Under the pieces are notes generated by a model. The model made no database searches. It saw only the letters and a list, made by a program, of their open reading frames with translations, and was not told the DNA's origin. The translations under genes and the position numbers were made by a program. From positions 5,085-69,084 of IMG/VR virus record IMGVR_UViG_3300050821_004652: 64,000 nucleotides of DNA; one strand, given 5' to 3'. Shown piece by piece: positions 4,974-56,089 of the stretch. The first letter of the stretch is position 1, and each line of letters begins with the position of its first letter. This stretch comes from a virus.

Positions 4974-5449
4974 GGCTTCGCGGGAAATTCGCTCGCCATC
5001 ACCGTCTCATGGGTGAGCGGCGTATGCTTGGCATAGTCCGGTCCCTGCGTCGCCAGCACAGCACCGTAGCAGAGATCACACAACGCCATGCCGCCGATCG
5101 ACCCGTCAGGACGCGCCTTGTTCTCCACGATGACGCCGGTCGCCGCGCGCTCGCAGCGGATAGTCGGCTTTCCCGCCCGACCCCTAAGCGGCGCCTGGCA
5201 GCGCGCGATATCAATGCCGTCCCGACCGACGCGCGCAACGATCCTCGGATGAAACCGCGGGCCGCTTGACCGACCACGAAGCATCCCTTGTGAGGAAGCG
5301 GCGCGAGCAGCAACAACTTCCGGGTGTGCCTTCACCCAATCCCGCGCCCTTTTCATCGCCTCTATCTGACCAGGCGTGGGCATTCCGTAATCGTCCGGCG
5401 CCGGCGGCGAAGGCTCCTGCCCGCTTGCGTTCGTGAAGACCGCTGCCAT
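4970..5449 (-). CDS. Hypothetical protein with Cys pairs
   Basis: GGAG RBS; ATGA overlap. Confidence 0.55.
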   Translation of the reverse strand: MAAVFTNASGQEPSPPAPDDYGMPTPGQIEAMKRARDWVKAHPEVVAARAASSQGMLRGRSSGPRFHPRIVARVGRDGIDIARCQAPLRGRAGKPTIRCERAATGVIVENKARPDGSIGGMALCDLCYGAVLATQGPDYAKHTPLTHETVMASEFPAKP

Positions 5450-38646: not shown

Positions 38647-39549
38647 CTAGAAGCTGGAGCCATCGCTAAACCCGACACTCCCTGACCAGCCGCCGCCCCA
38701 GCACCCCCATGTCGCCCCATCGGAGGACCAGTCGCCGCCGATGCCGTTGCCCCCCAGCGTGTTTCGAAACCGCATCCAATCTACCTGAATATCGGAGCTC
38801 ACCGTCATCTCATTGCCGTCCGCGATCCGCGCTTCCGTGATCTTGGCCTTGGCGATGGCGATCTGATCCTTGCGAACCGCCAGGCCCAGCTTGGGGTTTT
38901 TGCTCGACCACAGCGGCCAGCATACCTCGCTCGCCAGATAGGCGATCATGGCCGAAGTAAAGAGTTGGTCCCACAGTGAGGGATAGGTCGCGTCGAAGGT
39001 ATAAACCAGCGAGGCATTCTGCACGTTGGAGAGAATTACCGTGCTGCCGATCGGGCTCGAGCCGTGCGTCGGCTGATAGGGCACCGCCACCGGCTGCGAA
39101 AAATTCGGGTCGTTGGTCACGAGGAACTGTGATGGCCGGATGGGTTGCCAGAGGATCGCCGGATTGCCGCCCGTCGTGGGAGGAACATTCGGGTTGGGCG
39201 GCTGGATGTTGCCCGGCGGCACGCCCGGATTCTGGTAAGGCTTCCACGGGATGTAGCGGATCCTTTGACAGTCTGTCGGGTAGGCATATTCGTACTGGAA
39301 ATTCGTACCCGGCACCTGGGTGCCTACGTTTGGCGTCACGCCAGAAGAGTCGGCCAGCAGAAACAACGGCACCTGTTTCCGGGCAAATCCCCATGGCGCC
39401 CCGCGAAGAAGATCCTCTCGGCAACGACCATAGGCGCGCAACAGCAGGTTTGCTTCACGGCCGCCCTGCTCGAGATTGCCCAACTCCATGTTGTAGCCAC
39501 AGGCATCGAGCGCGAGGTTGGCAACGTCTACGGGATAGCCGATCGTCAT
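38647..39549 (-). CDS. Tail adaptor/tubular protein A paralogue 1
   Basis: VANLALD, WGFARK, YEYAYPTDC, WDQLF. Confidence 0.75.
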   Translation of the reverse strand: MTIGYPVDVANLALDACGYNMELGNLEQGGREANLLLRAYGRCREDLLRGAPWGFARKQVPLFLLADSSGVTPNVGTQVPGTNFQYEYAYPTDCQRIRYIPWKPYQNPGVPPGNIQPPNPNVPPTTGGNPAILWQPIRPSQFLVTNDPNFSQPVAVPYQPTHGSSPIGSTVILSNVQNASLVYTFDATYPSLWDQLFTSAMIAYLASEVCWPLWSSKNPKLGLAVRKDQIAIAKAKITEARIADGNEMTVSSDIQVDWMRFRNTLGGNGIGGDWSSDGATWGCWGGGWSGSVGFSDGSSF

Positions 39550-40157
39550 CGCTGCTCCAACTCGCTGGTCGCCTGCTCACCGGCCGCCTGCGGAATGGTG
39601 GTGCGATTGGAATCGGCGCCCGTCAATTCCGGCCCGAGGAGCGCTGCCAGGCGGATCGCCAGCGCGTCGGTGAAGGCCACATCCCACGTCGTGGGGTCGG
39701 TGATGCGCGCCGTGAAGGAGGCTTGCGCGTTCTGCACGTTCGATAGCAGCACCCGTTGTGGCGGGGTGAATCTCGGATCGTTGTACTCCGAGAACGGATA
39801 GAACTGCGGGTCCGGGTTGAAGAGGAAATTCGGCTGCGGCTGGATGATCCGAATCTTGAGAGCATTCGAGGGAAACGCATACTCGAACGCCCATCCCGCC
39901 GGCGGCATCGACACCGGATCCCACGGGTAGCCGGCGGTCGGCACAAACTTCAGCAGTGTCAGCGCAGCCGTTTGCTCGGCAAAATCATAGTCGTATTCCC
40001 GCAGCATCTGATCGCGAGTCTGACCGTAGATATCGAGGATGCTACTGGCGTGATCGGAACCATCGAACAGCGAGCCCACGCGCAGCTTGAAGCCCATGCG
40101 AACGAGTGCCGCATTGGCGACTTCCGCAGGATTTTTGAGGCTGGTCGTGATGGCCAT
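39546..40157 (-). CDS. Tail adaptor/tubular protein A paralogue 2
   Basis: VANAALV, YDFAEQ, FEYAFPSN, WDVAFTDALAIRLA. Confidence 0.75.
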   Translation of the reverse strand: MAITTSLKNPAEVANAALVRMGFKLRVGSLFDGSDHASSILDIYGQTRDQMLREYDYDFAEQTAALTLLKFVPTAGYPWDPVSMPPAGWAFEYAFPSNALKIRIIQPQPNFLFNPDPQFYPFSEYNDPRFTPPQRVLLSNVQNAQASFTARITDPTTWDVAFTDALAIRLAALLGPELTGADSNRTTIPQAAGEQATSELEQR

Positions 40158-40735
40158 CAGCCCTGCCTCGTTTCATTCGCTTTGGCCGCCGCCACGGACG
40201 ACTGGAGGAAGGACTGTTCGGTATCAGGCCGGCCGGACAACGACATCGCGAGCTTCGACGCCAGCATGCGAGTGACGCTCTCGGTGAACAGCGCATCCCA
40301 TACCGATTCTGTCGGATTGTTGTTCAGCACGAGTTGAGCGCCGACGACGTTGGTCCAGATCACCTTGGACTGCACGCCGGAGACCAGGTTGTTGCCCACC
40401 GTCCACACTGTCGGCAGCGGATCGTTCGGATCGGTATTCGACGGATCGAGCAGTTGCCAGATCTCCACGGCAAAGGGCGGATAGAGATATTCCAGCGTCA
40501 GGCCAGGCAGGAACGAGACCGGACTGTTCGCCGTGAGTGTCGGCGTAAAAATCCTTCGCGCGAAGTCCCAGCCGAATTCACGCTCGACGGCCTGGACCGT
40601 GGGCCCATAGATCGTCGCCAGCGCAACGCCGGCTGGAGAGGAATCGAACGTCGGCGCAAAGCCGGTCACTGCCGGGGTATTGTCCCCCATCAGATCGATG
40701 GCGATATTCGCGACCTGGTTCGACGTAAGAGCCAT
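40157..40735 (-). CDS. Tail adaptor/tubular protein A paralogue 3
   Basis: VANIAID, WDFARR, LEYLYP, WDALFTESVTRMLA. Confidence 0.75.
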   Translation of the reverse strand: MALTSNQVANIAIDLMGDNTPAVTGFAPTFDSSPAGVALATIYGPTVQAVEREFGWDFARRIFTPTLTANSPVSFLPGLTLEYLYPPFAVEIWQLLDPSNTDPNDPLPTVWTVGNNLVSGVQSKVIWTNVVGAQLVLNNNPTESVWDALFTESVTRMLASKLAMSLSGRPDTEQSFLQSSVAAAKANETRQG

Positions 40736-42496: not shown

Positions 42497-42736
42497 CTAC
42501 CTCTCGATTTCGTCATCGCCTTTGGGACCTTGCTTGCCGAGATTGATAACCGGCAGCTTTTTCCCTTTGGCAACGTCATCCATCAGTTTCTTATTGGCCG
42601 CCCGCTCGGCATCCGTTGGCTCCTTGCGATCCTTGCTGTCCTTGTCCTGATCGCTTTCGTCTTCGTCATCCGCTCCCTGCATCGCCGCCAGCTTCAGGCT
42701 ACGCGGGTTATCATAGAGCTTCGATTGCTTTGCCAC
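42497..42736 (-). CDS. Small charged protein with N-terminal SKLYDNPRS motif
   Basis: GTG start; motif shared with the scaffold C-terminus. Confidence 0.6.
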   Translation of the reverse strand: MAKQSKLYDNPRSLKLAAMQGADDEDESDQDKDSKDRKEPTDAERAANKKLMDDVAKGKKLPVINLGKQGPKGDDEIER

Positions 42737-42738
42737 CT

Positions 42739-43164
42739 TCAGGCCGCCGCAGGAGCGGCCGCCGGGGCGGCGCCAGCCTCAGCAACAGGCGCCGGCGCAG
42801 GAGTCGCGGCGCCCCCACCGGCTTCCTCCGAGACCGCGCCCGGCCCGGCCGCCATTTCGGTGGCATGCTTGGACGCCATGGCATCGTGCTCATCCTGGTG
42901 GCGCTTGTGCATCTTGTCGTGCTCGGCCTTGTGGTTGCCGTGCATGTCGCGCCGCTCGGTGCGGTGACGCTCGTGCATCTCCTCCCGCTCCTGCTTATGG
43001 CGCTCGTGATGCCCCTTCTCTTCGGGCTTCGCCTCTTTGCCCTTGTCCGTGGGCTCGGGCGCCTTACCCTTTTCCTCGACCTTTTTCAGGGCAGGCTCTT
43101 GCGCCTTGTGCTCGCCGCGGGCCTTTTTCGAGGCGTCGCTGTCGTACATTTTCTCGCGGGCCAT
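42739..43164 (-). CDS. His-rich 11-residue-repeat protein with N-terminal REKMYD motif
   Basis: HERHKQEREEM-HERHRTERRDM-HGNHKAEHDKM-HKRHQDEHDAM. Confidence 0.7.
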   Translation of the reverse strand: MAREKMYDSDASKKARGEHKAQEPALKKVEEKGKAPEPTDKGKEAKPEEKGHHERHKQEREEMHERHRTERRDMHGNHKAEHDKMHKRHQDEHDAMASKHATEMAAGPGAVSEEAGGGAATPAPAPVAEAGAAPAAAPAAA

Positions 43165-43166
43165 GA

Positions 43167-43397
43167 TCAATGCTCCGGGTGATGTCGCTGAGAACGCGGG
43201 TGAGGATACATCTTCTTCCGCCGGTGAGCCATTTTCTCAAAGGTCAACGCCAGGCGAGCTCGCTTGCCCTCTTTGCCGGGGGCGTCCTTTTCCTTCTCGG
43301 CATGCTCATGGACCGACTCGCCCGCCTTTTCGGCCGACTTGGTGAAGGAACCCTCTTTCAGGTGCGCCTTCTGAATCCACTTTTTGCCCTTCGCCAT
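43167..43397 (-). CDS. Small basic protein with C-terminal RRKKMYPHPRS
   Basis: GAGGAG RBS; KKWIQKA..K.G...KRARLALT. Confidence 0.7.
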   Translation of the reverse strand: MAKGKKWIQKAHLKEGSFTKSAEKAGESVHEHAEKEKDAPGKEGKRARLALTFEKMAHRRKKMYPHPRSQRHHPEH

Positions 43398-43434
43398 CGG
43401 AACGCTCCTCGAGGCTACGTCGCCCAGCGTCGAA

Positions 43435-43653
43435 CTAGGCATCGTGCTTGCGATGGGCGAAAGCGCCGCGGATCTTGCTATGGAACCAGCCACCAACAGA
43501 ATCCGCGGCTACGCCCTCGTGATAAGTCTCCGCCGGCACGCCGTCATAGGAATAGAGGCCGCCGCCCTTGAACCGAATCCAAAGCGTCGTGCCCTCATGG
43601 CCCATCGCCTGGATATTCTTGCTCTGCACGGGGGTGAGATGCGGAATTTTCAC
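43435..43653 (-). CDS. KTSC domain protein
   Basis: VQSKNIQAMG...LWIRFKGGGLYSYDGVP...SVGGWFHSKIRG. Confidence 0.8.
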   Translation of the reverse strand: MKIPHLTPVQSKNIQAMGHEGTTLWIRFKGGGLYSYDGVPAETYHEGVAADSVGGWFHSKIRGAFAHRKHDA

Positions 43654-43850
43654 TTCGTCGACCTCGGATGATCGTACATCTTCTCGCGCCGGTGCATCTT
43701 GTTGGCGTGCTTGTTGGCGGTCGCAATCGCGATACCTTCAGGCACGCCCTCTTTCAACATGGCGTTCGCCATCTCGGAAGCCTTGGCCGCCGACTTGCCC
43801 TTCAGCTTCTTATTGTGCCGCTTGGCAAATTCTTCCGGCGTCCAAGGCAT
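43650..43850 (-). CDS. Small protein (MPWT...ANAMLKEGVPEGIAIATA) with C-terminal RREKMYDHPRS
   Basis: TGATG overlap; resembles the YdaT/DUF2188-like N-terminus. Confidence 0.7.
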   Translation of the reverse strand: MPWTPEEFAKRHNKKLKGKSAAKASEMANAMLKEGVPEGIAIATANKHANKMHRREKMYDHPRSTK

Positions 43851-44338
43851 CAGGTGGTGCGGATCCACACCGCCAGAGGCGCATTGAACATCCAGCAATA
43901 CTTCGTGTTGGCGGTCAACGCGGTGACAGTGCCCAGGCCGAACGCCGCGAAAGCCTGTCCGGTATTGGCCGTCATCGTGACCGCAGTCTGCGTCTGACTA
44001 TCCTCCACGCACACGCGCTGCCCGTCGCCCGGTGAGGCCGGCATCGTGATGGTCCCGGTCGCGAGCGTGCCCGCCGGATTGAGATAGAGGAAGCTGACAA
44101 ACTTCGGAACCGTGATCGTGAACGCGGTGAGCGGCACCTGGTAGGAATACTGCTCGATACCGGCGACGCCACCCGGAGGCGCGTACACGGCTTGAGCGCT
44201 CGGAGCGCTCAACGGCACAACCTGTACCGAGTCGGTCTGACTGATGGCCCCGATCTGCGGCACAGGAACGCCCTGCGCGAGTGCCCAGCCGGCAAAAGCC
44301 AGGAGCGCGCCGGTAGCGAGGATAGCGAGCTTCTTCAT
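43850..44338 (-). CDS. Virion-like beta protein with signal peptide
   Basis: MKKLAILATGALLAFAGWALA; LNPAGTLATGTITMPASPGDGQ. Confidence 0.7.
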   Translation of the reverse strand: MKKLAILATGALLAFAGWALAQGVPVPQIGAISQTDSVQVVPLSAPSAQAVYAPPGGVAGIEQYSYQVPLTAFTITVPKFVSFLYLNPAGTLATGTITMPASPGDGQRVCVEDSQTQTAVTMTANTGQAFAAFGLGTVTALTANTKYCWMFNAPLAVWIRTT

Positions 44339-44349
44339 ATGACGATCTC

Positions 44350-45063
44350 CTAGTTGAGGATCAGGTAGTTGTAGGTACTGGTGTCGGACGCCGTGCCGGA
44401 CACGGTAAAGCCAGTGCCAGGCGTGATGGTCAAGACGTGCGGCGAGGCGCCGACAGTACCACCCACCGTCTTGAGGGTGAAAATGATCACCGAGTTGGCC
44501 GTGACGCGCGAGTCGGTCACGGTCACCGCGCCACCGCCCGTCAGTGCGACATAGGTGCCGCTCGGCGCCGTCGGCATCGACTGGTAGAGCCCGACCATCG
44601 TAATCGCGCTCAGGCTCGTCAGGGTGACCAGGAAGACAACCATGCTGTTGCTCTGCACGGTGTTGATTCCGGACACAGTGACGCCAGTGCCGCCGGCGAT
44701 CGTGGCCGTCGCGTTGGTCGTGTTTTCGTAGAAGTAGAGGAAACTTTGACCGACATAGGGGTTGGGGATTCCGGCGATGATGTGCGCCGCGGTGTCGGTC
44801 GTGTCCGTGAATGCCGTGTTGCTCTGCGAGCCGCCGCGCTGGGTAACCTTGCCGACAATGCCAGCCGCCGTGATCGTACCAGCGCCTACGGTGTTGAGCG
44901 CGGTGATAACGGGTGTTCCGCCATTGGCACCAAGGAAGAACTGATCGAGGGTCGACAGCGCCACGATGCAGGAAACTTCTCCCGCAAAGATCGGCAACGA
45001 CATCGAGCCCAGAAGCTGAGCGAAGGTGAGATTTTTGGCGCCGGGGACAGGAGCAATGGCCAT
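44350..45063 (-). CDS. Putative head decoration/virion protein
   Basis: Thr/Gly-rich; TDTTDTAAHII; lies in the head cluster. Confidence 0.6.
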   Translation of the reverse strand: MAIAPVPGAKNLTFAQLLGSMSLPIFAGEVSCIVALSTLDQFFLGANGGTPVITALNTVGAGTITAAGIVGKVTQRGGSQSNTAFTDTTDTAAHIIAGIPNPYVGQSFLYFYENTTNATATIAGGTGVTVSGINTVQSNSMVVFLVTLTSLSAITMVGLYQSMPTAPSGTYVALTGGGAVTVTDSRVTANSVIIFTLKTVGGTVGASPHVLTITPGTGFTVSGTASDTSTYNYLILN

Positions 45064-45071
45064 GGGAACCT

Positions 45072-45965
45072 CTATGAAATAGCTGGTGTTTGCAGCGATA
45101 CGCTCGCCTGGCCCGTCGTCGACATGCGGTATCTTACTGTGGTGTTCGCGACGCCGGTATAGGCAAGGCAGTTGAGGCGATAGAGCATCCCGGCTTCGGG
45201 ATCACCGAACGACAGCGAAAGCGGCTTCGTCAACGCCCACTGCGCTTCCGTTCCATCGCCGCCCAGGCCGCAGGCGATCCAGTGCTTGCCGCCGTCGAAG
45301 CTGCGCTCGAGTTGCAGGGTGAGGTTGATCGGAGTCGCCGGCCCCATGATGACGCCCGTCGAATCGGCGCCTGACACGCCGATCGCATTTCCCGTCGGCG
45401 CGAACTCTATCAGCACCGGGCCGCCCGCGGCTGGCGGCGGCGCGGACGTGGCGGCCGCCGAAGCAGTCAGCGTAAACGTCGTGTTGCTGGCAGCAAGAAT
45501 GGTGGTGCCCGAAGGGAAATACGGGCTGTTCAGGATCGTGGCGCCGATCAGCGTCGTGAGATCGGCCGGCTGGGTCGGACCGCCGGTGATCGGCGGCGGG
45601 ATGCTGATCGTGGCGGATCCGTTGGTGATATTCCCCGCCCAGAACTGCGGCATGAAGGCCGCCACAAGCGATGCGGTGCCCCCGCCCGAGAAAACCGTCG
45701 CGCCAGGCGGGATGTTCGCGCCCACCAGGGTGTCACCGTTGGAAACGCTCGTGCCGCTCGCGGCCGTGATCGATGTCGATCCTTTGGTCGTGGTGAGCGT
45801 GTCGGAGAGCTCGCCCCACACGACGACGTTCATCGGCCCCCACGCGGTAAAGGCAGCGGACGGCCCGACGCCCGCGAACGTCCCTACGATCAGGGCGTTC
45901 GCGCGATCCGGCGAGCCGACGTTCTTGTTGGAACCGCTGACCCCAGCTAGTGAGGGAATTCCCAT
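45072..45965 (-). CDS. Putative virion structural protein
   Basis: LQLERSFDGG..W...EAGMLYRLNC. Confidence 0.6.
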   Translation of the reverse strand: MGIPSLAGVSGSNKNVGSPDRANALIVGTFAGVGPSAAFTAWGPMNVVVWGELSDTLTTTKGSTSITAASGTSVSNGDTLVGANIPPGATVFSGGGTASLVAAFMPQFWAGNITNGSATISIPPPITGGPTQPADLTTLIGATILNSPYFPSGTTILAASNTTFTLTASAAATSAPPPAAGGPVLIEFAPTGNAIGVSGADSTGVIMGPATPINLTLQLERSFDGGKHWIACGLGGDGTEAQWALTKPLSLSFGDPEAGMLYRLNCLAYTGVANTTVRYRMSTTGQASVSLQTPAIS

Positions 45966-45968
45966 GAA

Positions 45969-46724
45969 CTACGAGACGCCTTTCGGGGCATTGGTGATCG
46001 CCTTGCGGGCAACCGTGCCCAGCACCGCGACCTCCGCCTGTGTGTGATCGTTCACGCCGACGATGCCAAGATCGTCGCTGAAATTCGGCTCTGCCGCCAC
46101 ATGCTGCCGCTTGGGCGGATCGCCCTTCACGACAAGGCCCTTGGCGGTGACCCACAAGGGGCGCGTGTCGGCGGTCGGCACGAAGACGGAGTGGCCGCCG
46201 GTAGTCGCCTTCCACGCGGCAAAGATCGCCTTGGCCACATCGTTGATGGGGACCATCGCGTCATTCGGCACGCCCGTGTAGAAAATCTCCACCGAGACGG
46301 CCACCTTGTCGACGAGGCGATAGGGCTCGATGAACCGTTCGTTGAGATAGACCTTGGAGATCAGCTTGTACTCCGGCCTGGTCGCGCCCTCCTGGTGAGC
46401 CGCCGTCAGGAGCTTGTCCATGCGCTCCGCTGCCGCCTCGCGCGCAGCAACCTCCTCCGGAGAGAGCGGCTTGCGATGCTGGCCCTGCTGACCGATCGCC
46501 GCCATGTTCATCGACAGCTTGCTCAACACCTGTTCGAGCAGATCGACGGCATTGGTGCTGACCGCGAGGCCCGCAGGCGGCTCCGCAGGCGCCCCTTCCG
46601 GCGCGGGTGTAACCGCAGCGAACATTTCCGCCTTGAACTGCTCCATGGCGGCTTTGACACGCGCGTTGACCGCCTCCTCGAACTCAGGCGTTTCGATTAC
46701 CTTCTTGCGACCAGGACTGGTCAT
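45969..46724 (-). CDS. Hypothetical head-module protein
   Basis: AAGGAG RBS; long ORF. Confidence 0.7.
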   Translation of the reverse strand: MTSPGRKKVIETPEFEEAVNARVKAAMEQFKAEMFAAVTPAPEGAPAEPPAGLAVSTNAVDLLEQVLSKLSMNMAAIGQQGQHRKPLSPEEVAAREAAAERMDKLLTAAHQEGATRPEYKLISKVYLNERFIEPYRLVDKVAVSVEIFYTGVPNDAMVPINDVAKAIFAAWKATTGGHSVFVPTADTRPLWVTAKGLVVKGDPPKRQHVAAEPNFSDDLGIVGVNDHTQAEVAVLGTVARKAITNAPKGVS

Positions 46725-46760
46725 AGCTGCTCCTTGTGCGCCAGAGAGCGGCGCGGAAGT

Positions 46761-47303
46761 TTAACCCTTCACCGCGAAGTTGGCGGCGGCGAACTTGTTG
46801 TTGAGCGTGGGCGTGCTCATGGTGACCATCGACCAGGCGATCGTGCCCGCCGTGAATGTGGCCGACGGCGTGAACAACAGGCTGATGAAGCGTGGATTGA
46901 AACCGTCCGGATATTCCGGCGGCCAGTCGAAGCGGCCAATGAAGCCGGAATTCGCCGGTCCATTGGCCACAAGCTGCGCAACGGTATAGGCCGGCGACTG
47001 GACGAAGGTCTGCCAGGGGCCGGGAATGCCGCCGCCGGCGTCGATAGCGCCCTGCACCGCGATGGTGAGAGTGCCGCTGCCGGCAAAGGTCGTACCGATG
47101 GCGGAGATGAGCAGCGGCCGTTCGCGGCCGACACCCAAGTCCGCTCCGAACACGGACGCATTGCCGATGATGGTGCCCGCAACCGGCGCCGTCACGCCAA
47201 TGCCCAGGCCGAGCTCGTCATAGATATTCGAGCGGACCGCGGCGCTGGTGATGGCGAGGTTCGAGCCATAGGGCAGGAAGTTGACGAGTGAGTCGGTGAG
47301 CAT
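46761..47303 (-). CDS. Capsid cement protein (Bbp16-like)
   Basis: MLTDSL..F...AITSAAVRSNIYD...RFISL...TFTAGTI; follows the capsid gene. Confidence 0.7.
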   Translation of the reverse strand: MLTDSLVNFLPYGSNLAITSAAVRSNIYDELGLGIGVTAPVAGTIIGNASVFGADLGVGRERPLLISAIGTTFAGSGTLTIAVQGAIDAGGGIPGPWQTFVQSPAYTVAQLVANGPANSGFIGRFDWPPEYPDGFNPRFISLLFTPSATFTAGTIAWSMVTMSTPTLNNKFAAANFAVKG

Positions 47304-47339
47304 GTGCGCTTTCTCCTAGAGAACTGGATACGACGGCCC

Positions 47340-48389
47340 TTACGTCAGGGCGCCTTCAGTGTTGGTAAGCTGATCGACCACCTTGATCGGAATGCCGCGG
47401 TACCCGGTGATCGGCATGCCCGCATAGTCTTTCATCTCGAGCAGGACGTTGCGATCACGAATCGCCTGGATGTCGAGCGCATGACGGAGCGTGCGGTTCA
47501 TGTAGAAGACCGGATGCACTCCATAATCCGCCAGCGGCGCGTCCGTCTTGTCGACGCCCGAAGTGGTGCGGGAGAGCTTCGGGAACAGCAGGAGCATTTG
47601 CCCCATGACCACGAAGAGATCTGGCGGCGTCGGGCCGAACAGGCCGACAGAGCCGGTGGTGGTGTCGAGGTTGGCGTAGCGCACGCCGTAGCGCCAATCC
47701 TTCGGGCAGAGACCGGCCTGCTGACGGAACCAGGAGGTGTACGCCTCGAAACGGTTGCCGAGAGAGTCGAAGCCGGGCGTGACGTCGCCCTTGTCCTCCA
47801 TATCCAGGCCCGCCTTGGACCCTTCCGGGAAAACGCCGGTGATGGTCTCCGGACCCCAGCCAAGCAGCCACATCGAGCAGTTGGACGAACCTGTTCCGCC
47901 GCCGTTCAGCACGTTGGTCGCGTTCTGGGCGTTGGCGGCATTGATGGTGTTGTAGAATGGGCTGAAGCCCATGAATTCGATCGGCGTGAGTGACGTGTTG
48001 CCGTAGAAGAACGTCTGGACGATCGTCTGCGACATGCCTTCCAGGAAGGCCGCATCTTCCGTCTCGCGGAAGCGCTGGAGATCGCCGGAGTGCTCGCCCA
48101 GCGCGCGGTCCACCTGGCTGTAATCCTCGAGCATGCCCATGTCGATGCGCGCCTTCGCGGTGGTCGACTTCGAATAGGGCACGCCCATGTTGTACGAGCG
48201 CCAGGAGCCCGCCGGGATCGACGTCCGGAAGACGAATTCATGCGTGGTTCGGCCGTTCGCCTTCACCCACGGAATGTCGTCATAGAAATCGTTGCACTGA
48301 GACAGCATCTCCGCGATCTCGGGGATCTTGCCCTCCGGATCGAGGCGGGAAGCAACGTCGACCATCGTCGGCCATGAACCAGTCGCCAT
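47340..48389 (-). CDS. Major capsid protein (Bbp17/epsilon15 gp7-like, HK97 fold)
   Basis: IAEMLSQCN..DDIPW, EDAAFLEGMSQ, DWRYGVRYAN, YRGIPIKVVDQLTNTE. Confidence 0.9.
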   Translation of the reverse strand: MATGSWPTMVDVASRLDPEGKIPEIAEMLSQCNDFYDDIPWVKANGRTTHEFVFRTSIPAGSWRSYNMGVPYSKSTTAKARIDMGMLEDYSQVDRALGEHSGDLQRFRETEDAAFLEGMSQTIVQTFFYGNTSLTPIEFMGFSPFYNTINAANAQNATNVLNGGGTGSSNCSMWLLGWGPETITGVFPEGSKAGLDMEDKGDVTPGFDSLGNRFEAYTSWFRQQAGLCPKDWRYGVRYANLDTTTGSVGLFGPTPPDLFVVMGQMLLLFPKLSRTTSGVDKTDAPLADYGVHPVFYMNRTLRHALDIQAIRDRNVLLEMKDYAGMPITGYRGIPIKVVDQLTNTEGALT

Positions 48390-48411
48390 TTCAAACTCTC
48401 CTGTTCAGAAA

Positions 48412-49326
48412 CTAGCTTTTCGCCTTTTGAGAAGAAGGATGGTTGTAGATCAGGTCACGACGGCTCACGTTCGGGCCGCGTCCGTTGTCTTTCGGCACGC
48501 CGATCTCCGCCGACGGCACCGGAGGCTCGTCAAGAAACCGCGCCACGTTGTGAAGCATGCGCCACATGACCGGATGATCGCCGGAGCCGGTGACGCGGAA
48601 AAATTCGGAGGCAGCCTTCAGGTCCGCCGCGTAGCGCTTGGTGCCAGGCTTGGCAGAGCTCACCAGCAGATCACGCATGCGCGCGACGGCCTGCTTGGTG
48701 GTTTCGTACCCGTTGCCGCCAAGCTCCGGATCGGCCTGGATCTCTTTCTGCCAGGCCGCGCGAGTGTCGTTGAACTGCTTGTGCTGATGCTGGCCGACTT
48801 GCGCGGCGTAGTCCTTGATCGCCTGCAAATGAAAATCAATCAGCGGCTGGACGTTCGACGGATCGGCGCGGAAATTGTCCAGCGTTTCGTGAAGCTGGGT
48901 GCGGCGCTCGTCCGGCAGCGTCAGGAGATTTTCTGGGATCTCGTATTTGTATTCGACTTTGGGAAGCTCTGCCGGCTTAGGCGGCTCCGCCGGCGGCGCT
49001 TCCGTCGGTTTGTCGTCCGCCTTGACTTCAGCCGGCTTGACCTCGGCGGGTTTGACCTCGGCAGGCTTCTCTTCCGGCTTGACCTCGCCAGGCGCATCGA
49101 CGGTCTCGAGCAGCGACGGTGTTTCGACAACCGTCTTGGGCTCTTCGGCGACTACAGGCGCCGGTGCGACAGGCGGCGCGGCAGGCGGAGTCTCGACGAC
49201 CACCGGCGCAGGCGCAGCAGCCACGACCGCCGGTGCGGGCGCAGCGCTTTCGGCCGGAATGCTCGCAGGCGGAACCGCGGCGACCGGGACCGGGGCGTCG
49301 GCGTCCACTTTGGCCGGATCAGGCAT
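48412..49326 (-). CDS. Capsid scaffolding protein
   Basis: Pro/Ala/Glu-rich N-terminus, W...IQADPELGG, GDHP..R; directly upstream of the capsid gene. Confidence 0.8.
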   Translation of the reverse strand: MPDPAKVDADAPVPVAAVPPASIPAESAAPAPAVVAAAPAPVVVETPPAAPPVAPAPVVAEEPKTVVETPSLLETVDAPGEVKPEEKPAEVKPAEVKPAEVKADDKPTEAPPAEPPKPAELPKVEYKYEIPENLLTLPDERRTQLHETLDNFRADPSNVQPLIDFHLQAIKDYAAQVGQHQHKQFNDTRAAWQKEIQADPELGGNGYETTKQAVARMRDLLVSSAKPGTKRYAADLKAASEFFRVTGSGDHPVMWRMLHNVARFLDEPPVPSAEIGVPKDNGRGPNVSRRDLIYNHPSSQKAKS

Positions 49327-49700
49327 CAGATCACTACCTCAGCAAATCGGGGATCATTTTCGTGGAGCATATCCATGACGCCCTTCGGCTCGCGGAAGTG
49401 CCACAGTTGATAGAGGCGCTGGCCGATCTGCTGTTCGCCCAGGTGCAGCCACGAGGCGAGCGGATCTGGCGCGCCCGCCGGGCTCGAGCCGAAGATGGTC
49501 TCGAACGTGTGGCACTCGGCCAGGATGCTCCACAGGAAGCGGCGGCCGGCTTCGCTCGCCAGCACCAGCCTGAAAAATTCGCGGTCCTCCCGCTGCTTGC
49601 GCTTGATCTTCGACTCGCGACGCTTGCGCTGGGTCTCGTCGACAGCAGAGGCGACAGGCTCGGTCGACTCCAGGTCATCGCCTTCGGTCGGATCACTCAT
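49326..49700 (-). CDS. Bbp19-like protein
   Basis: VLASEAGRRFLWSIL...GEQQIG. Confidence 0.7.
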   Translation of the reverse strand: MSDPTEGDDLESTEPVASAVDETQRKRRESKIKRKQREDREFFRLVLASEAGRRFLWSILAECHTFETIFGSSPAGAPDPLASWLHLGEQQIGQRLYQLWHFREPKGVMDMLHENDPRFAEVVI

Positions 49701-50161
49701 TGGAGGATGAACCCCTTCGGAACGGCGACCTTGCGGTTCTCCGGCCGGTACGGCAGTTGATCGGGCAGGATCAGTCCCGTCTTGCCGGTGGCGCGGTCCT
49801 TCAGTTCCTGTGCAGCCTTGCGCGCGAGCAGCAGGACTTCGGCGCACTTCAGGAACATCGGCCCCCTGCTGCGGAAGCGAAGCCAGTCCCCGCACTTCTT
49901 GTGAGTATCGATCGCGAACCGACCGATCGGCAGCCAGCGAGTATCGCCGCGCCACGCTGCGGCCTGCCGGCAGGCCCCCTCGACCAGGTGAAGTTGCTCG
50001 CGCAGCTTGACGTAGCGCTGCCCCTTGATGCGATTTTCCTGAGTTGCCAATGCCTTACAATGATCTGCCGCCTCTCCGAGAGAGGTGATCAGCCGGTCGA
50101 AGATCTCGACTTCTGTAAGGTTGGACACGGCAATCACTATGATGGCCGCGGGGAGACTCAC
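49697..50161 (-). CDS. Hypothetical protein (start may be GTG at 50128)
   Basis: ATGA overlap downstream. Confidence 0.6.
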   Translation of the reverse strand: MSLPAAIIVIAVSNLTEVEIFDRLITSLGEAADHCKALATQENRIKGQRYVKLREQLHLVEGACRQAAAWRGDTRWLPIGRFAIDTHKKCGDWLRFRSRGPMFLKCAEVLLLARKAAQELKDRATGKTGLILPDQLPYRPENRKVAVPKGFILQ

Positions 50162-50226: not shown

Positions 50227-50442
50227 ATGACGCAAAATAGTCCATACCTCTCCCGCAAGCAGGCAGCAGCCTATCTTCGCAGTCAGGGGATCGCGGTTTC
50301 CCCCGGCACCCTGGCTCAATGGGGCCTGAAAAAGCGACAAGGAGAAGGGCCGCCATACAAGCGCTTCAAGAACGGTCTCGCGCTCTACACTCGAGAGGAT
50401 CTGGACGAATGGCGCGACAAGAATCTCCGACCGGTTGGGTGA
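50227..50442 (+). CDS. AlpA/excisionase-like HTH protein
   Basis: YLSRKQAAAYL...TLAQW...GPPY...LYTREDLDEW; TATAAT at 50196. Confidence 0.8.
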   Translation: MTQNSPYLSRKQAAAYLRSQGIAVSPGTLAQWGLKKRQGEGPPYKRFKNGLALYTREDLDEWRDKNLRPVG

Positions 50443-51991: not shown

Positions 51992-53845
51992 CTAACGTCC
52001 TTTCGGGAACGCTCCGGAACCGGCAATCGCATCGAGCGCCGACCCATTGTTGAGCGAGGTTTCCGAAAGAGTCTTCGCAGCCTGGACGGCGGCCATCGCA
52101 TTGCCAGGCGCCGTCGCCGCGGTATGCGCCTGCTGCGTGGCCTGTGCCCGCGCCTGATCGTGCTGCTGCACCTGATCATCCGTGAACAGAATGTGCGTCC
52201 GCATGTGGGTAGCCTTGGCGTAGTCCTTGGCCCACTGATCGAGGTTCACGGTGCGCAGCGGATCCGGCAGCGTAGCCGCCTTCGCGGCGCTGGAGGCGGC
52301 GCCCATCGCAGCCAGGAAATCCTTCAGCGACACCGCATCCGAAGCCTGCATCGCCAGGCGCATGATCGACTGATATTCGATCTTGAACGTGCGCCCTTGG
52401 AGCGATGCCGGCATGTCCGGGATCATTCCGCGGCGCTGGCAGATCGCGAAGATGCGATTGATCGCCGGCGTTGCGACTTCGGTCTCATGGAGCTCGACCA
52501 GGGGCCCAAGCTGCTGCAAGCGCTCGAGATCGCGCTTGGTAAGCTCTAGCTCATTCTTCGGCTGCACGCCTTCCATACGCGAGATCGCCAGGAAGACGTC
52601 GACGAAGAGGCATTTTTCAGTGCGCAGGTTCACCGCCGCAATGTCGGCCGTGATGCCCTGGAGCCATACGGGATTCGGCTCGAACAGCGCCCAGAAGCCT
52701 TTCTTGCCGCCCGCCGTGTTCATGTAGGTGATGCGGGCCGGCATGATCGACGCGGGCTCGTTCTTCAATTCGGGGTCCGCGCCCATCGGCGGGCGCACGC
52801 CCTTTTCGATGAATTCGGCCTTGCGCAGCGATTCTAGCTGGACCTGTTTCGCATCACCCAGCGCGTCCATGCAGAACGACCGGCCATAGGGGTCGTTGCC
52901 GACCAGGCCGCCGCGCGCCACGACGAAGGGCTGCTCATGGAAACCGCGGATCGACAGCGGCTGGCTCCCCATGTCGCCCTTGACCCAGTAGACCTCGCGA
53001 AAGGGAAACAGCCTGGAGACCGGATAACGGTCCGTCTTCTGCCCCTTCGGTCCCATCAGCGGGTAGTTGGGCTCGATGATGTGGCAGATCACGACCTCGG
53101 TATCCATCGTGCCATCGTCGAACATCTTCTGGATCGACTGGGTGCATTTTTCGTAGCCGAACCATTCGACCGTTTGCAGGATCGTGAAGGTGTAGTCCCG
53201 GTGCAAGGTGTTGGTGTTGAGGCGCGAACCGCTGCCCAGCGTGTACTCGCCAGGGCACGGCAGGTAGACCCGGATCACGTCTTCCTTGTCTTCGTAGATG
53301 ATCGGCGGCGACGTCCCGAACACTGTCTCGTCCTGGAACATTTGCGCCATTTGCACGAAGAAATTGCTCTGGTGCATCACGGTGTCGATGACATCGTAGA
53401 CGCGCTCGAGCCAGGTCTTGCCGTCTGCCGGAATATCGTCGGTCTCCATGCCGACAATGCCCACGCCGAACCATTTGCGCGATGGCGACATGAGCCCCGT
53501 CCACAGCCCGGAGGCACATACCCGGACCGCCTGTAGGCCGGTCGAATCGATGATGGCTTCGTTGACCGGCCGTCCGCGCCACATGCGATTCGCGACGATC
53601 GTCAGCCACTGCCAGCGCCGCGGCATGAAGAATTCGGCCAGCACCTGCCAGTGCAGGAGCCAGGACCAGCGCCAGGTGATCAGCGCGCGCCGGCGCCGTT
53701 CGACGTGATTGTAGAGAAGCGGCCACCAGGAAGCGACAAGCTGCGGCAGGACGTTGCTCTGCACCGGCATATTCGCCAGCGAGGACGAGTCGACGTCCTG
53801 GTAAGCGGCGTGAGCCTCTTCGCGGAGTGAAGCGCCGTCGGGCAT
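51992..53845 (-). CDS. Portal protein (head-tail connector, Bbp21/T7 gp8-like)
   Basis: IIDSTG..A....ASGL...L.SPSRKWF, SNF, YGRS..MDALGD. Confidence 0.9.
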   Translation of the reverse strand: MPDGASLREEAHAAYQDVDSSSLANMPVQSNVLPQLVASWWPLLYNHVERRRRALITWRWSWLLHWQVLAEFFMPRRWQWLTIVANRMWRGRPVNEAIIDSTGLQAVRVCASGLWTGLMSPSRKWFGVGIVGMETDDIPADGKTWLERVYDVIDTVMHQSNFFVQMAQMFQDETVFGTSPPIIYEDKEDVIRVYLPCPGEYTLGSGSRLNTNTLHRDYTFTILQTVEWFGYEKCTQSIQKMFDDGTMDTEVVICHIIEPNYPLMGPKGQKTDRYPVSRLFPFREVYWVKGDMGSQPLSIRGFHEQPFVVARGGLVGNDPYGRSFCMDALGDAKQVQLESLRKAEFIEKGVRPPMGADPELKNEPASIMPARITYMNTAGGKKGFWALFEPNPVWLQGITADIAAVNLRTEKCLFVDVFLAISRMEGVQPKNELELTKRDLERLQQLGPLVELHETEVATPAINRIFAICQRRGMIPDMPASLQGRTFKIEYQSIMRLAMQASDAVSLKDFLAAMGAASSAAKAATLPDPLRTVNLDQWAKDYAKATHMRTHILFTDDQVQQHDQARAQATQQAHTAATAPGNAMAAVQAAKTLSETSLNNGSALDAIAGSGAFPKGR

Positions 53846-54386: not shown

Positions 54387-55907
54387 CTACCGATAGGGAT
54401 TGTAATCGTCCTTTGCACCATATCCGGAATCCAGGCCCCTCTCAACGTCAGTGAAAGCGCGGTAATCGCCCTGCATCGCGGTATAGGCCGGCTTCCGCGT
54501 GCGCGCTTTGGGCGTGACCTTCTCGGCAAACGTGAGCGCCAGGGCATCCGCTTCGTCGGGAGAAAACCCGAGTTTTTCGCGAATTTGCTCCTTGTCCTCG
54601 AGAATCAGCTTGTCGGTGTTTTTCTTCCGGAGAAACGTCGTCTTCGTCAGCGCCTGCATGAGCTCGATCGAGCCTTCGGTCTCCTCCGGGGGCAACGCGC
54701 CGCCTTCGTTTTTCACCCAGTTAGCCAGCAGAAAATACATTTCCGCCCGCCTGTTGTAGTAGCGATCGTCCTGGTGGGCCTTGCTGTTGAACGCAACCGG
54801 AATCGGCTGCTTACCGAGCACCACAAGCTGGTCGATCCACGGGAATCCGTGGCCGCCGGTGGCGTCGACGAAAACGGCGTCGGCCTCAAATTCATCCCAG
54901 ATGCGCGACGTGATCGAGGCGCCGGCAACGCCGTTCGCCACGTTGCGGTAGCGGTGCATTGGAAACGCCTGGAGACCTTGCCGGGGGAAGATCACCGAAG
55001 CGTCCAGGCCCTCGCGCGCCACGTCGACCCCGAGCACCTTGGCCATGCCGTACAGGTCATGCGGCCGATAGTGGCGCTTCATCGCCGCCTTCACGTCATC
55101 CTCGGAGAGCAGCGAGTTGATGGTGCCGTCCGGGAATTTCCCGAGCACGTTCACCATGACCCAAGGATTATCCCGCCCATACCGGCGGATCTGCGACCGT
55201 GCCCATTCAGGGCTGACGCGCGGTGCGCGCATCGGATCGTCCGGGTCGGCCGTGATTTCCCGCACCGCCCAGCGACCATTTTCGTGAACGCCCTTGCGAT
55301 CCTTGGCAGCGGCATAGAGCGCACCGTCGAGATCGGTCGGATTGCCGGCCATCACAAGATGGCCTTCCTTGCACGACGACAGGGCCGCTTCCGCGGTCAC
55401 CACCACCGACTGCGGAATGCCGCCGCCTTCGTCGATCAGGAACAGGATGTAATCCGCGTGCAGGCCGGCAAGGGTGTCCGCCTGGCTCTTGTTGTCACCC
55501 GTCTTCGGCCATGTCCGGGCCGACATGAACCAGGTCTCCGGCCGCGACTTATAAAAGATCCGGGTGGTGGTCCACTGGAATAGCTGGGTGAGCATCGTGC
55601 TTTCCCGCTGCCACTTCGCCATTTCCTTCCACAGACCGTCGCGAAGGTTGTCGCCCGAGATCGACGTCGCCGCGATGTTCGGCTCATCCCGCGTGGCCAG
55701 GAAATTCCAGCCCAGCCAGGCCAAGCACGTCGTCTTGCCGGGGCCCTTGCAGGCCTGCATGGCGATCATCGGCTCATGCGGGAACAGGCGCAGGATTTCG
55801 TCCTGCCACGCGTCGGGCTCGACTTTGAAGTGATCGCGAACGAAGAGATCGGGCCGCTCTGCCCAGCGTTGGAAATCACCGATCAGTTGGGCGCGGGTGC
55901 GACTCAC
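54387..55907 (-). CDS. terL: Terminase large subunit
   Basis: Walker A ACKGPGKT, Walker B LIDE, GNP, nuclease GVDVAREG.D, SPDEADALALTF. Confidence 0.93.
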   Translation of the reverse strand: MSRTRAQLIGDFQRWAERPDLFVRDHFKVEPDAWQDEILRLFPHEPMIAMQACKGPGKTTCLAWLGWNFLATRDEPNIAATSISGDNLRDGLWKEMAKWQRESTMLTQLFQWTTTRIFYKSRPETWFMSARTWPKTGDNKSQADTLAGLHADYILFLIDEGGGIPQSVVVTAEAALSSCKEGHLVMAGNPTDLDGALYAAAKDRKGVHENGRWAVREITADPDDPMRAPRVSPEWARSQIRRYGRDNPWVMVNVLGKFPDGTINSLLSEDDVKAAMKRHYRPHDLYGMAKVLGVDVAREGLDASVIFPRQGLQAFPMHRYRNVANGVAGASITSRIWDEFEADAVFVDATGGHGFPWIDQLVVLGKQPIPVAFNSKAHQDDRYYNRRAEMYFLLANWVKNEGGALPPEETEGSIELMQALTKTTFLRKKNTDKLILEDKEQIREKLGFSPDEADALALTFAEKVTPKARTRKPAYTAMQGDYRAFTDVERGLDSGYGAKDDYNPYR

Positions 55908-56089
55908 TTGACGACGGCCTTGGGTGTCTGGAGACGGACCATCGCGCGGTGGACCTTTTCCTGGTCCGTAAACATCCAGGGCGAGATCAAGTCGGCATAG
56001 CGATTGATGCGCCACTCCTGGAGCAGCTTTATCGCGCGGCGGTTTTCCTCAAGAAGCTCTTCGCGGGTCGGGGCCGAGGCGTTTTCCAT
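55904..56089 (-). CDS. Hypothetical protein
   Basis: GTGA overlap with terL. Confidence 0.5.
   Translation of the reverse strand: MENASAPTREELLEENRRAIKLLQEWRINRYADLISPWMFTDQEKVHRAMVRLQTPKAVVK

Follow-up and report, generated by a model that had tools for sequence, protein, structure and literature searches.

Short peptides that target proteins to capsids are already known, as is mimicry of a scaffold tail. In T4 the capsid targeting sequence is N-terminal, is directed to the core of the scaffold and is later removed by the prohead protease; the cargo-loading peptides of encapsulins are short, mostly C-terminal and bind the inner surface of an HK97-fold shell; and in P22 the C-end of the scaffold binds the coat protein. 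To our knowledge, the selection of minor head proteins is understood in detail for few tailed-phage systems, such as T4. According to the part of the eLife 2017 paper drawn on here (PMC5644958), the 80alpha scaffold and the SaPI1 protein CpmB have a common C-terminal RIIK that makes the same helix-and-hook on the coat N-arm, and the two termini are exchangeable. Here we describe a stretch of 64,000 nucleotides (the window; positions 5,085 to 69,084 of the 69,084-base IMG/VR record IMGVR_UViG_3300050821_004652, which CheckV rates as complete) in which a putative scaffolding protein and four small proteins, p82, p76, p141 and p79, carry a similar peptide, or tag, near one end (Table 1). On the sequence comparisons presented below, it seems rather probable that this is a portable coat-binding peptide that recruits small proteins into the procapsid. 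What appears to be new is that several families of the phage's own small proteins copy the scaffold tail at either end, that the copies evolve in concert with that tail, and that the same rule covers epsilon15 and BPP-1. In the parts of the literature covered, PMC4819975 included, neither gp10 nor Bbp20 nor any other small protein was described as bearing a tail like that of the scaffold, many subscription papers and supplements lying outside the scope of this search.

A sequence-only reading of this DNA had placed copies of the C-terminal peptide of the scaffold on four clustered, otherwise unrelated small proteins, at the C-terminus of two and at the N-terminus of the other two, and all five peptides are indeed where that reading put them. 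The 304-residue scaffold open reading frame (ORF) ends in ...SRRDLIYNHPSSQKAKS, and p82 ends in ...HRREKMYDHPRSTK, at its extreme C-end. In p76 the tag is ...HRRKKMYPHPRSQRHHPEH, with seven more residues after the Ser, so that the description of this copy as C-terminal is right in the sense of lying near the C-end and wrong in the sense of the extreme end. The N-end of p141 reads MAREKMYDSDASKK (ATG start, with GGAG 9 nucleotides upstream) and that of p79 reads (V->M)AKQSKLYDNPRSLK. This last gene is the least certain of the four: its GTG start lies 2 nucleotides past the p141 stop, a clear ribosome-binding site is absent, and the sole match in the 32 loci searched (see below) was p79 itself. 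The regular expression [MLI]Y[DNP][HNS][PD][RSA]S matches these five places and no others, whether all six frames are taken from the window or from the complete record, set against a mean of 0.007 and a maximum of 1 in residue shuffles (n=300), a contrast that is inflated because the expression was written post hoc from the five peptides. The small proteins are otherwise as unrelated as had been claimed, p82 and p76 cross-matching only at an expectation value (E) of 2e-3. No Pfam family was found for p82, p76 or p79; p76 matches phrog_20603 (E 3e-8); and the Atlas search yielded nothing but viral clusters without names and, for p82, a lead to ChaB that at 0.83 falls under that search's own bar. 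With tblastn, p76 and p82 gave one weak match each, in Thermus phage TSP4 and Methanosarcina virus MetMV, and the Methanosarcina-virus homolog of the p82 core (51 residues) is untagged. From the window alone, the case for a common tag is suggestive at best.

The relatives of this phage make a considerably larger sample and provide the independent test. Scans of viral, metagenome and genome collections with the major capsid protein (MCP) gave 122 loci of 47-87% MCP identity, or 93 after de-duplication, and the loci that extend 3 kb or more past the MCP gene on its downstream side form the set of 32 already mentioned. The pattern recurs in about 30 related uncultured phages. A widened expression, [MLIVF]Y[DNTK][HN][PA].[SK], has 94 matches in the coding-strand ORFs of the 93 loci (507,549 residues) and 0 in the opposite-strand ORFs (439,036 residues). 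Of these matches 76 lie no more than 12 residues from the C-end, 17 are N-proximal and a single one, probably due to chance, is internal. When the tag is masked, the ORFs that carry it can be sorted into 12 groups, namely the scaffold (39 loci), the families of p76 (19), p141 (14, N-proximal) and p82 (9), one further small family, the fifth (6), and seven single-locus groups, which comprise five tagged small ORFs (p79 among them), the internal match and one fragment (at L120) that is probably the end of a scaffold. Homologs of p82, p76 and p141 occur in 11, 22 and 28 of the 32 loci, and the peptide, basic residues followed by a Tyr, is kept at the expected end (E<=1e-4) in 11/11, 20/22 and 24/25 cases, respectively; all 11 of the 11 rows aligned for p82 have the same MPW start and the same Tyr. 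What is found, then, is a short conserved terminal peptide on otherwise unrelated proteins encoded near the shell gene, and at least five unrelated protein families carry it, at the N-end or at the C-end. On these results the tag is old, under selection and terminal, and is borne by unrelated proteins at either end. The expectation that related phages would have a conserved terminal motif on several unrelated small proteins, at either end, is thus largely borne out, with 93 terminal matches out of 94. The Tyr stands anywhere between 2 and about 13 residues away from the chain end, and members of the p141 family have the motif 5-40 residues in from the N-end, so that the signal does not include the free terminus.

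In L002, the closest relative (MCP 86% identical), three small N-tagged ORFs flank the portal gene (L002:2733-5545), rather than lying downstream of the head genes. Their tags read MADRAKLYDHPRS.., (V)IDRAKLYDNARS.. and MSRREKLYDAPAS.., and two of the three share a C-terminal ..YWR[PR]K....PTS end; p79 resembles them only in its tag and an acidic stretch.

If the small proteins copy the scaffold tail, the tags of each genome should resemble its own scaffold more than those of others, and in many genomes with divergent tails they visibly do. In L022 the scaffold ends in DIYKSNRE, with LQYKSKG on p76 and MARLQYKGKD on p141; in L080 the scaffold GFYTKNAA is accompanied by SYYTKG, SFYSKE and SLYSRKP; L027 has SPLYTHPTSQ and SPLYTHPTSH; L004 has SRMYDHPSSQ with two copies of SRMYDHPSSN and one SRMYDHASSK; L106 has SIYKHASSS and SLYKHPSSE; and L067 has LRDTYDHARSQ, LRDHYDKSKK and MAKLRDHYEKG. 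Over 27 genomes with 56 tags, the own-genome similarity was 14.8, compared to 8.5 under the null (z 4.6, a value reached in 0 of 10,000 permutations), and collapsing close kin to 23 genomes left the result intact (z 4.8). The 13 genomes with non-canonical tails, tested alone in an attempt to exclude an effect of fast versus slow clades, gave z 3.7 (again 0/10,000 permutations). Gene conversion was considered as a source of this likeness and rejected: the identical 9-residue peptide of L027 has codons that differ at 7 of 9 positions, and L004, L022, L106 and the window have the same pattern. The tags thus owe their likeness not to recent conversion but to maintenance at the peptide level.

We infer from gene position and predicted architecture that the 304-residue protein is the scaffold. 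Its gene adjoins that of the MCP, in the position of BPP-1 bbp18 and epsilon15 gp6, and an AlphaFold2 model (predicted local distance difference test, pLDDT, 74 overall and above 90 in the helical core) consists of a disordered Pro/Ala-rich region (residues 1-135), a helical bundle (139-266), a Pro-rich linker and the terminal Tyr peptide, the last as a short low-confidence helix; it is a helical and disordered architecture without an enzyme fold. The ORF matches phrog_458 (E 2e-9), no Pfam family was found for it, and tblastn against 50,697 phage records gave no match at E<=1e-5. A 'protease' or 'peptidase' label is widespread for proteins in this position (epsilon15 gp6, BPP-1 bbp18 and relatives); the epsilon15 record justifies it by similarity to a 'putative endoprotease' encoded in a Salmonella genome. 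We found no fold or motif to back this label, carried by phrog_458 and the GenBank records alike, and it is probably a propagated misannotation, since the model is a helical bundle without a protease fold. Foldseek gave no fold match in the PDB at E<=0.001, a result that neither confirms a known scaffold nor supports the 'protease'. The 54 non-redundant scaffold tails follow a general plan: a linker rich in Pro, NG-x-x-P, a basic stretch, one hydrophobic residue, the Tyr and then a variable end (among these ends are YDHPRS, YDNPRS, YTHPSS, YKSNRE, YAQRGVN, YPSM, YSQTRT, YENTNF and YTKNAA). The Tyr294 column is invariant in 40/40 aligned scaffolds, a figure that is not independent, the rows having been pre-selected for a Tyr in the last 30 residues. 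The common core of tags and tails is a basic run, a hydrophobic residue and Tyr only.

The cultured relatives, whose MCPs are about 30-40% identical to that of the window, are more distant and follow the same rule. We examined 15 of them: epsilon15, phiV10, BPP-1, Jess A, Ab31, KL4, Acinetobacter 4316, HU1, Klebsiella ST11-OXA245phi3.2, CP2, Vibrio 1.021.A, Octadecabacter BD1, Nsp-JY18, AF and BcepC6B. Nine have a gp10-like protein of family PF21628, all above the Pfam cut-off, and in 9/9 its C-end resembles that of the scaffold, by which we mean here the product of the gene immediately before the MCP gene. The pairs, scaffold first, are ..SAFYPKK and ..DAFYPDGEDD in epsilon15; ..SAAEVLYGK and ..SAAETLYGNGGE in phiV10; ..SAAEVLYGK and ..TAAQTLYGEGGE in the Klebsiella phage; ..ARRLYAASNMNP and ..AQRLYGASSMSA in BPP-1; ..AKSLYPNSNHN and ..AAKLYKDTD in Jess A; ..RAAKLYDKS and ..RAAKFYANTPTT in KL4 and BcepC6B; ..NRMYPDM and ..ARMYADDPSMKD in CP2; and ..DRVSLLYPNDKTA and ..DRAEQLYGPKS in Vibrio 1.021.A. 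For the seven non-redundant phages the observed similarity was reached in 6 of 5040 permutations, and the best match was the phage's own scaffold in five of the seven. Among the small ORFs inspected by eye in the six cultured phages without a gp10-like gene, no tagged protein was seen. In Burkholderia phage KL4, gp61 (L129:2600-2974; 124 residues, not gp10-like) ends in ..LLKQRLYDAA, near the scaffold end. Judging from such ends, cultured phages too may have more than one tagged protein.

The window itself encodes a member of the gp10-like family: the ORF scores 31.0 bits against PF21628, above the gathering cut-off of 27 (E 3.3e-7), and matches PDB chain 3j40_N by phmmer (E 1.4e-5), besides which no other gp10-like chain was found in the PDB. 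In the window clade the tagged genes lie just upstream of the gp10-like gene, and among the gp10-like homologs of the clade the canonical tag is present in 0/26 and an acidic end in 24/26; such acidic ends might associate with those tagged proteins that are basic. Several gp10-like proteins of the clade have a final Tyr after a long acidic run. Their gene always comes after the His-rich N-tagged p141 gene.

As to where gp10 resides, the portions of PMC9207676 used here state that epsilon15 virion proteomics putatively identified the 111-residue gp10; that the outer 'staple' density had been ascribed to gp10 because there was no other candidate; that in this 2022 re-analysis with AlphaFold models a 130-residue protein fits that density and gp10 does not; and that the 'staple' assignment is probably wrong. 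For BPP-1, PMC3863775 names, in the part cited, Bbp16 as the outer cement protein. A tail-bearing member of this system may thus be present in virions, and an internal location, reached via the binding site of the scaffold, would account for this. We tentatively extend the argument to the epsilon15/BPP-1-like podoviruses as a whole, which could well share a general and evolvable capsid address system in which the scaffold tail is a portable label and, in the model phages epsilon15, phiV10 and BPP-1, gp10/Bbp20 would be the labelled protein, internal to the capsid and not the outer 'staple'. The label would be the last 10-15 residues of the scaffold; any small protein could acquire it, at either end, and in the window clade it would have spread to at least five small protein families.

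How might such a peptide work? It would be a linear motif in flexible termini, consisting of a basic run, a hydrophobic residue, the invariant Tyr and a polar stretch (here D/N-H-P-x-S). On the scaffold it is most likely the contact by which that protein is held against the inside of the coat-protein shell. The proteins p82, p76, p141 and p79 would dock at the same coat-protein site during procapsid assembly and so become enclosed, and after the exit of the scaffold they could remain as internal proteins; the two very basic ones might ride with the DNA or be injected. Both the binding to the coat protein and the packaging inside proheads or virions we infer from these comparisons. The MCP is acidic (isoelectric point 4.9) and the tags follow basic runs, a charge pattern that would fit electrostatic steering. 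The sequence-only reading had suggested predicting the capsid protein together with each of the peptides; this was carried out for the MCP and p82, with our own alignments (38 and 11 rows), and the pair scored 0.37 compared to 0.00 for the best of three controls. The mark for such predictions was attained in 58 of the 80 solved complexes used for comparison, against 2 of the 110 mismatched pairs, a calibration that is roughly valid here as own alignments were used; at scores of 0.60 or below only 7 of the 80 solved complexes reached it, plus both of the passing mismatches. Contact agreement in the runs was at least 81% and the pLDDT of the partner at least 78.

A number of observations weigh against this interpretation. 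The MCP-p82 prediction is weak and came without a reported interface, the coat protein is a deduced rather than a structurally proven partner of the peptide, and the identity of the scaffold is likewise deduced. In the window, the scaffold tail and the tags have only Tyr, His, Pro, Ser and hydrophobicity in common, and the BLOSUM score of the scaffold 10-mer with the p82 and p76 tags (26) is little better than that of the best unrelated peptides (24). The gp10-like protein of the window has an acidic run at its end and lacks the Tyr tail, and the evidence for epsilon15 gp10 in virions is, as worded in the cited part of PMC9207676, putative. Among the relatives, the tag calls partly depend on our choice of the anchor Tyr, the genome-label permutations leave shared ancestry in, and the own-genome signal of the 10 canonical genomes is weak (z 2.2, p 0.025). 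There are also outright exceptions. In L054, L064 and L068 the scaffold ends in DIYSQTRT or DIYDQTRA while the small proteins still have LYDHP[RKS]S, and L087 has MLYENTNF on the scaffold versus KLYDHPRSK, KIYDHESS and KLHDHPRSS on the tags. On a quick MCP tree, L054, L064 and L068 nest among the YDHPRS phages with branch lengths of about 0.01-0.03; with branches this short, the scaffold residues past the Tyr can evidently vary while the coat protein stays nearly unaltered. About 10 changes of the canonical tail class are counted on this tree, at least 4 of them forced by well-supported branches. The claim that the tag tracks the scaffold tail in relatives is therefore upheld for the 27 genomes as a set and fails for these four.

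These exceptions bear on two alternatives, both of which we regard as unlikely. The peptide could bind the coat protein at the scaffold site and yet mark assembly regulators, small proteins that adjust occupancy, exit or geometry and then leave with the scaffold. CpmB acts in this way on 80alpha capsids (PMC5644958, in the part cited), the small genes stand in a fixed order beside the head genes, and tags that are often nearer to the consensus than is the scaffold tail, as in L054, L064 and L068, would suit competitors; a simple competitor would hardly need three to five tagged proteins per genome of basic, His-rich and acidic character, however, and epsilon15 gp10 is reported, putatively, from mature virions (PMC9207676, likewise in part). 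To a second possibility we give much the same low weight, namely that tail and tags bind in common some assembly protein other than the coat. This could be the portal, the Bbp19-like protein, or even the scaffold, self-associating through its tail, with the tagged proteins joining a scaffold core in the manner of the T4 internal proteins. Concerted evolution implies a shared partner without saying which, and the scaffold tails of L054, L064 and L068 have changed with almost no change in the MCP; moreover, three N-tagged small genes flank the portal gene in L002, and a Bbp19-like gene always precedes the scaffold gene. What speaks for the coat protein instead is that the MCP-p82 prediction stands above all three controls, if weakly, and that it is the coat protein that the scaffold C-end contacts in P22. 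The same holds for the 80alpha scaffold, according to the cited part of PMC5644958.

A motif directed at the host, such as a chaperone or protease-adaptor site or a degron that times folding or removal, with variants that follow the host, strikes us as distinctly improbable. A host partner would also change all copies in one genome together, and disordered termini are what degrons have; but the variable distance to the end and the placement 15-40 residues from an N-end are unlike end-dependent degrons, and all five matches in the 69-kb genome (5/5) lie within the neighborhood of the head genes. Least credible of all, to a degree that we would hardly entertain it, is the absence of any common function, the peptides being leftovers of old duplications or chance products of basic, low-complexity ends. 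The motif is admittedly short and the weak p82/p76 cross-match (E 2e-3) could be such a leftover, yet this view has to contend with 94 versus 0 matches on the two strands, the terminal position of 93 of the 94, unrelated folds tagged at opposite ends, derived variants held in common within genomes with differing codons, and the independent recurrence in all nine cultured phages with a gp10-like protein.

The region from 39.5 to 56 kb of the window contains, on the minus strand, a head and tail module of the kind known from podoviruses like epsilon15 and BPP-1, and its MCP has the HK97 fold of the epsilon15 gp7/BPP-1 Bbp17 type (Table 1). The nearest cultured phages reach about 40% MCP identity at best among the 50,697 phage records. 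Five ORFs separate the MCP gene from the tagged small genes, and BPP-1 and epsilon15 are without them; one of the five encodes a 237-residue protein with two quite different matches, to the C-terminal domain of K1 capsule lyase and to a family labelled head scaffolding protein. An untagged KTSC-domain protein, with homologs in 3/32 loci, is encoded between p82 and p76. The module also holds a tail fibre gene and two tail-tubular-A-like genes, and where BPP-1 and epsilon15 have one tail-tubular-A-like gene the window has two adjacent paralogues. No member of a prohead protease family was found among the head-module ORFs scanned. In the species genomes the sole match was L001, a 3.8-kb contig from an uncultured Hyphomicrobiales metagenome-assembled genome (MCP 72% identical), which together with a G+C content of 58-67% in the window hints at alphaproteobacterial hosts.

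Table 1. Features of the head and tail module, in order along the window, with the peptides discussed in the text
Feature	Position	Strand	Remarks
542-residue ORF	54387-56015	-	position of the large terminase in relatives; no Pfam match
Portal	51992-53845	-	phrog_332, 4e-94
71-residue ORF	50227-50442	+	between portal and scaffold genes; PF12728 HTH_17, E 1.6e-4, under the Pfam cut-off
Bbp19-like gene	49326-49955	-	PF25181, E 5e-6; directly upstream of the scaffold gene
Putative scaffolding protein, 304 residues	48412-49326	-	upstream neighbor of the MCP gene
Scaffold C-terminal tail SRRDLIYNHPSSQKAKS	48415-48465	-	carries the shared motif
Major capsid protein (MCP)	47340-48389	-	PF20911 GP7, E 1e-96; PDB 3j4u_A 6e-71, 3j40_A 4e-60
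237-residue protein	44350-45063	-	C-end like the K1 capsule lyase C-terminal domain, PF24146, E 2e-11; phrog_673 (head scaffolding protein), E 1e-8
p82, 66 residues, basic, pI (isoelectric point) 10.1	43650-43850	-	C-terminal tag; MYDHPRS at 43659-43679
KTSC-domain protein	43435-43653	-	PF13619, E 3e-13
p76, 76 residues, basic, pI 10.2	43167-43397	-	C-proximal tag; MYPHPRS at 43191-43211
p141, 141 residues, His-rich	42739-43164	-	N-terminal tag; MYDSDAS at 43129-43149
p79, 79 residues, acidic orphan ORF	42497-42736	-	N-terminal tag; LYDNPRS at 42698-42718
gp10-like protein, 101 residues	42189-42494	-	PF21628
Tail-protein gene, paralogue	40157-40735	-	phrog_394; E 7e-27 and 2e-10 for the pair, the gene at 39546-40157 being listed first
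Tail-protein gene, paralogue	39546-40157	-	phrog_394; see the preceding row

Should the proposed address system be real, a natural peptide of 10-15 residues common to scaffold and cargo would be a simple and general answer to the question of how minor head proteins are selected, and one that would hold for a large phage group, two structural model phages among them. The place of epsilon15 gp10, whose assignment to the outer density is now questioned, would be accounted for in a testable way; the small basic and His-rich proteins would become candidates for injection; and foreign proteins could be packed into HK97-fold shells by means of a compact tag.

Among described systems, the closest in logic is 80alpha with CpmB, where a second protein likewise bears a copy of the scaffold's C-terminal peptide and the coat has the HK97 fold. 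The RIIK motif itself was looked for and does not apply, the tails here being basic, hydrophobic, Tyr and polar, so that the logic alone is in common. CpmB is moreover encoded by a satellite and redirects capsid size (PMC5644958, in the part cited), whereas the copies described here, known from their sequences, belong to the phage itself, which has them on three to five different small proteins, N-terminal in some and C-terminal in others, the motif being basic-hydrophobic-Tyr. The natural peptide is also unlike the folded helix-turn-helix domain used in P22 virus-like particles, in which fusing the coat-binding end of the scaffold to a foreign protein encloses that protein; this man-made arrangement is an engineered form of what we propose for a linear peptide of about 10-15 residues. 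With the encapsulins the window has in common an HK97-fold shell and short peptides on unrelated proteins, but encapsulins have no scaffold, portal or DNA, and the motif here is unrelated to theirs in sequence and common to the scaffold. The T4 internal proteins, too, bear a short terminal peptide on otherwise unrelated small proteins and are later injected with the DNA, but in the present phages the signal copies the scaffold's own tail and may stand at either terminus. Removal of the tag in the T4 manner, at a prohead-protease cleavage site, was considered and rejected, as no protease was found and the BPP-1 capsid proteins are, in the part of PMC3863775 cited, uncleaved. Finally, the window resembles epsilon15 in encoding a PF21628 member, but unlike those of the cultured phages the gp10-like proteins of the window clade are without the tail, having either lost it or never had it, and here it is the genes just upstream that carry the tag.

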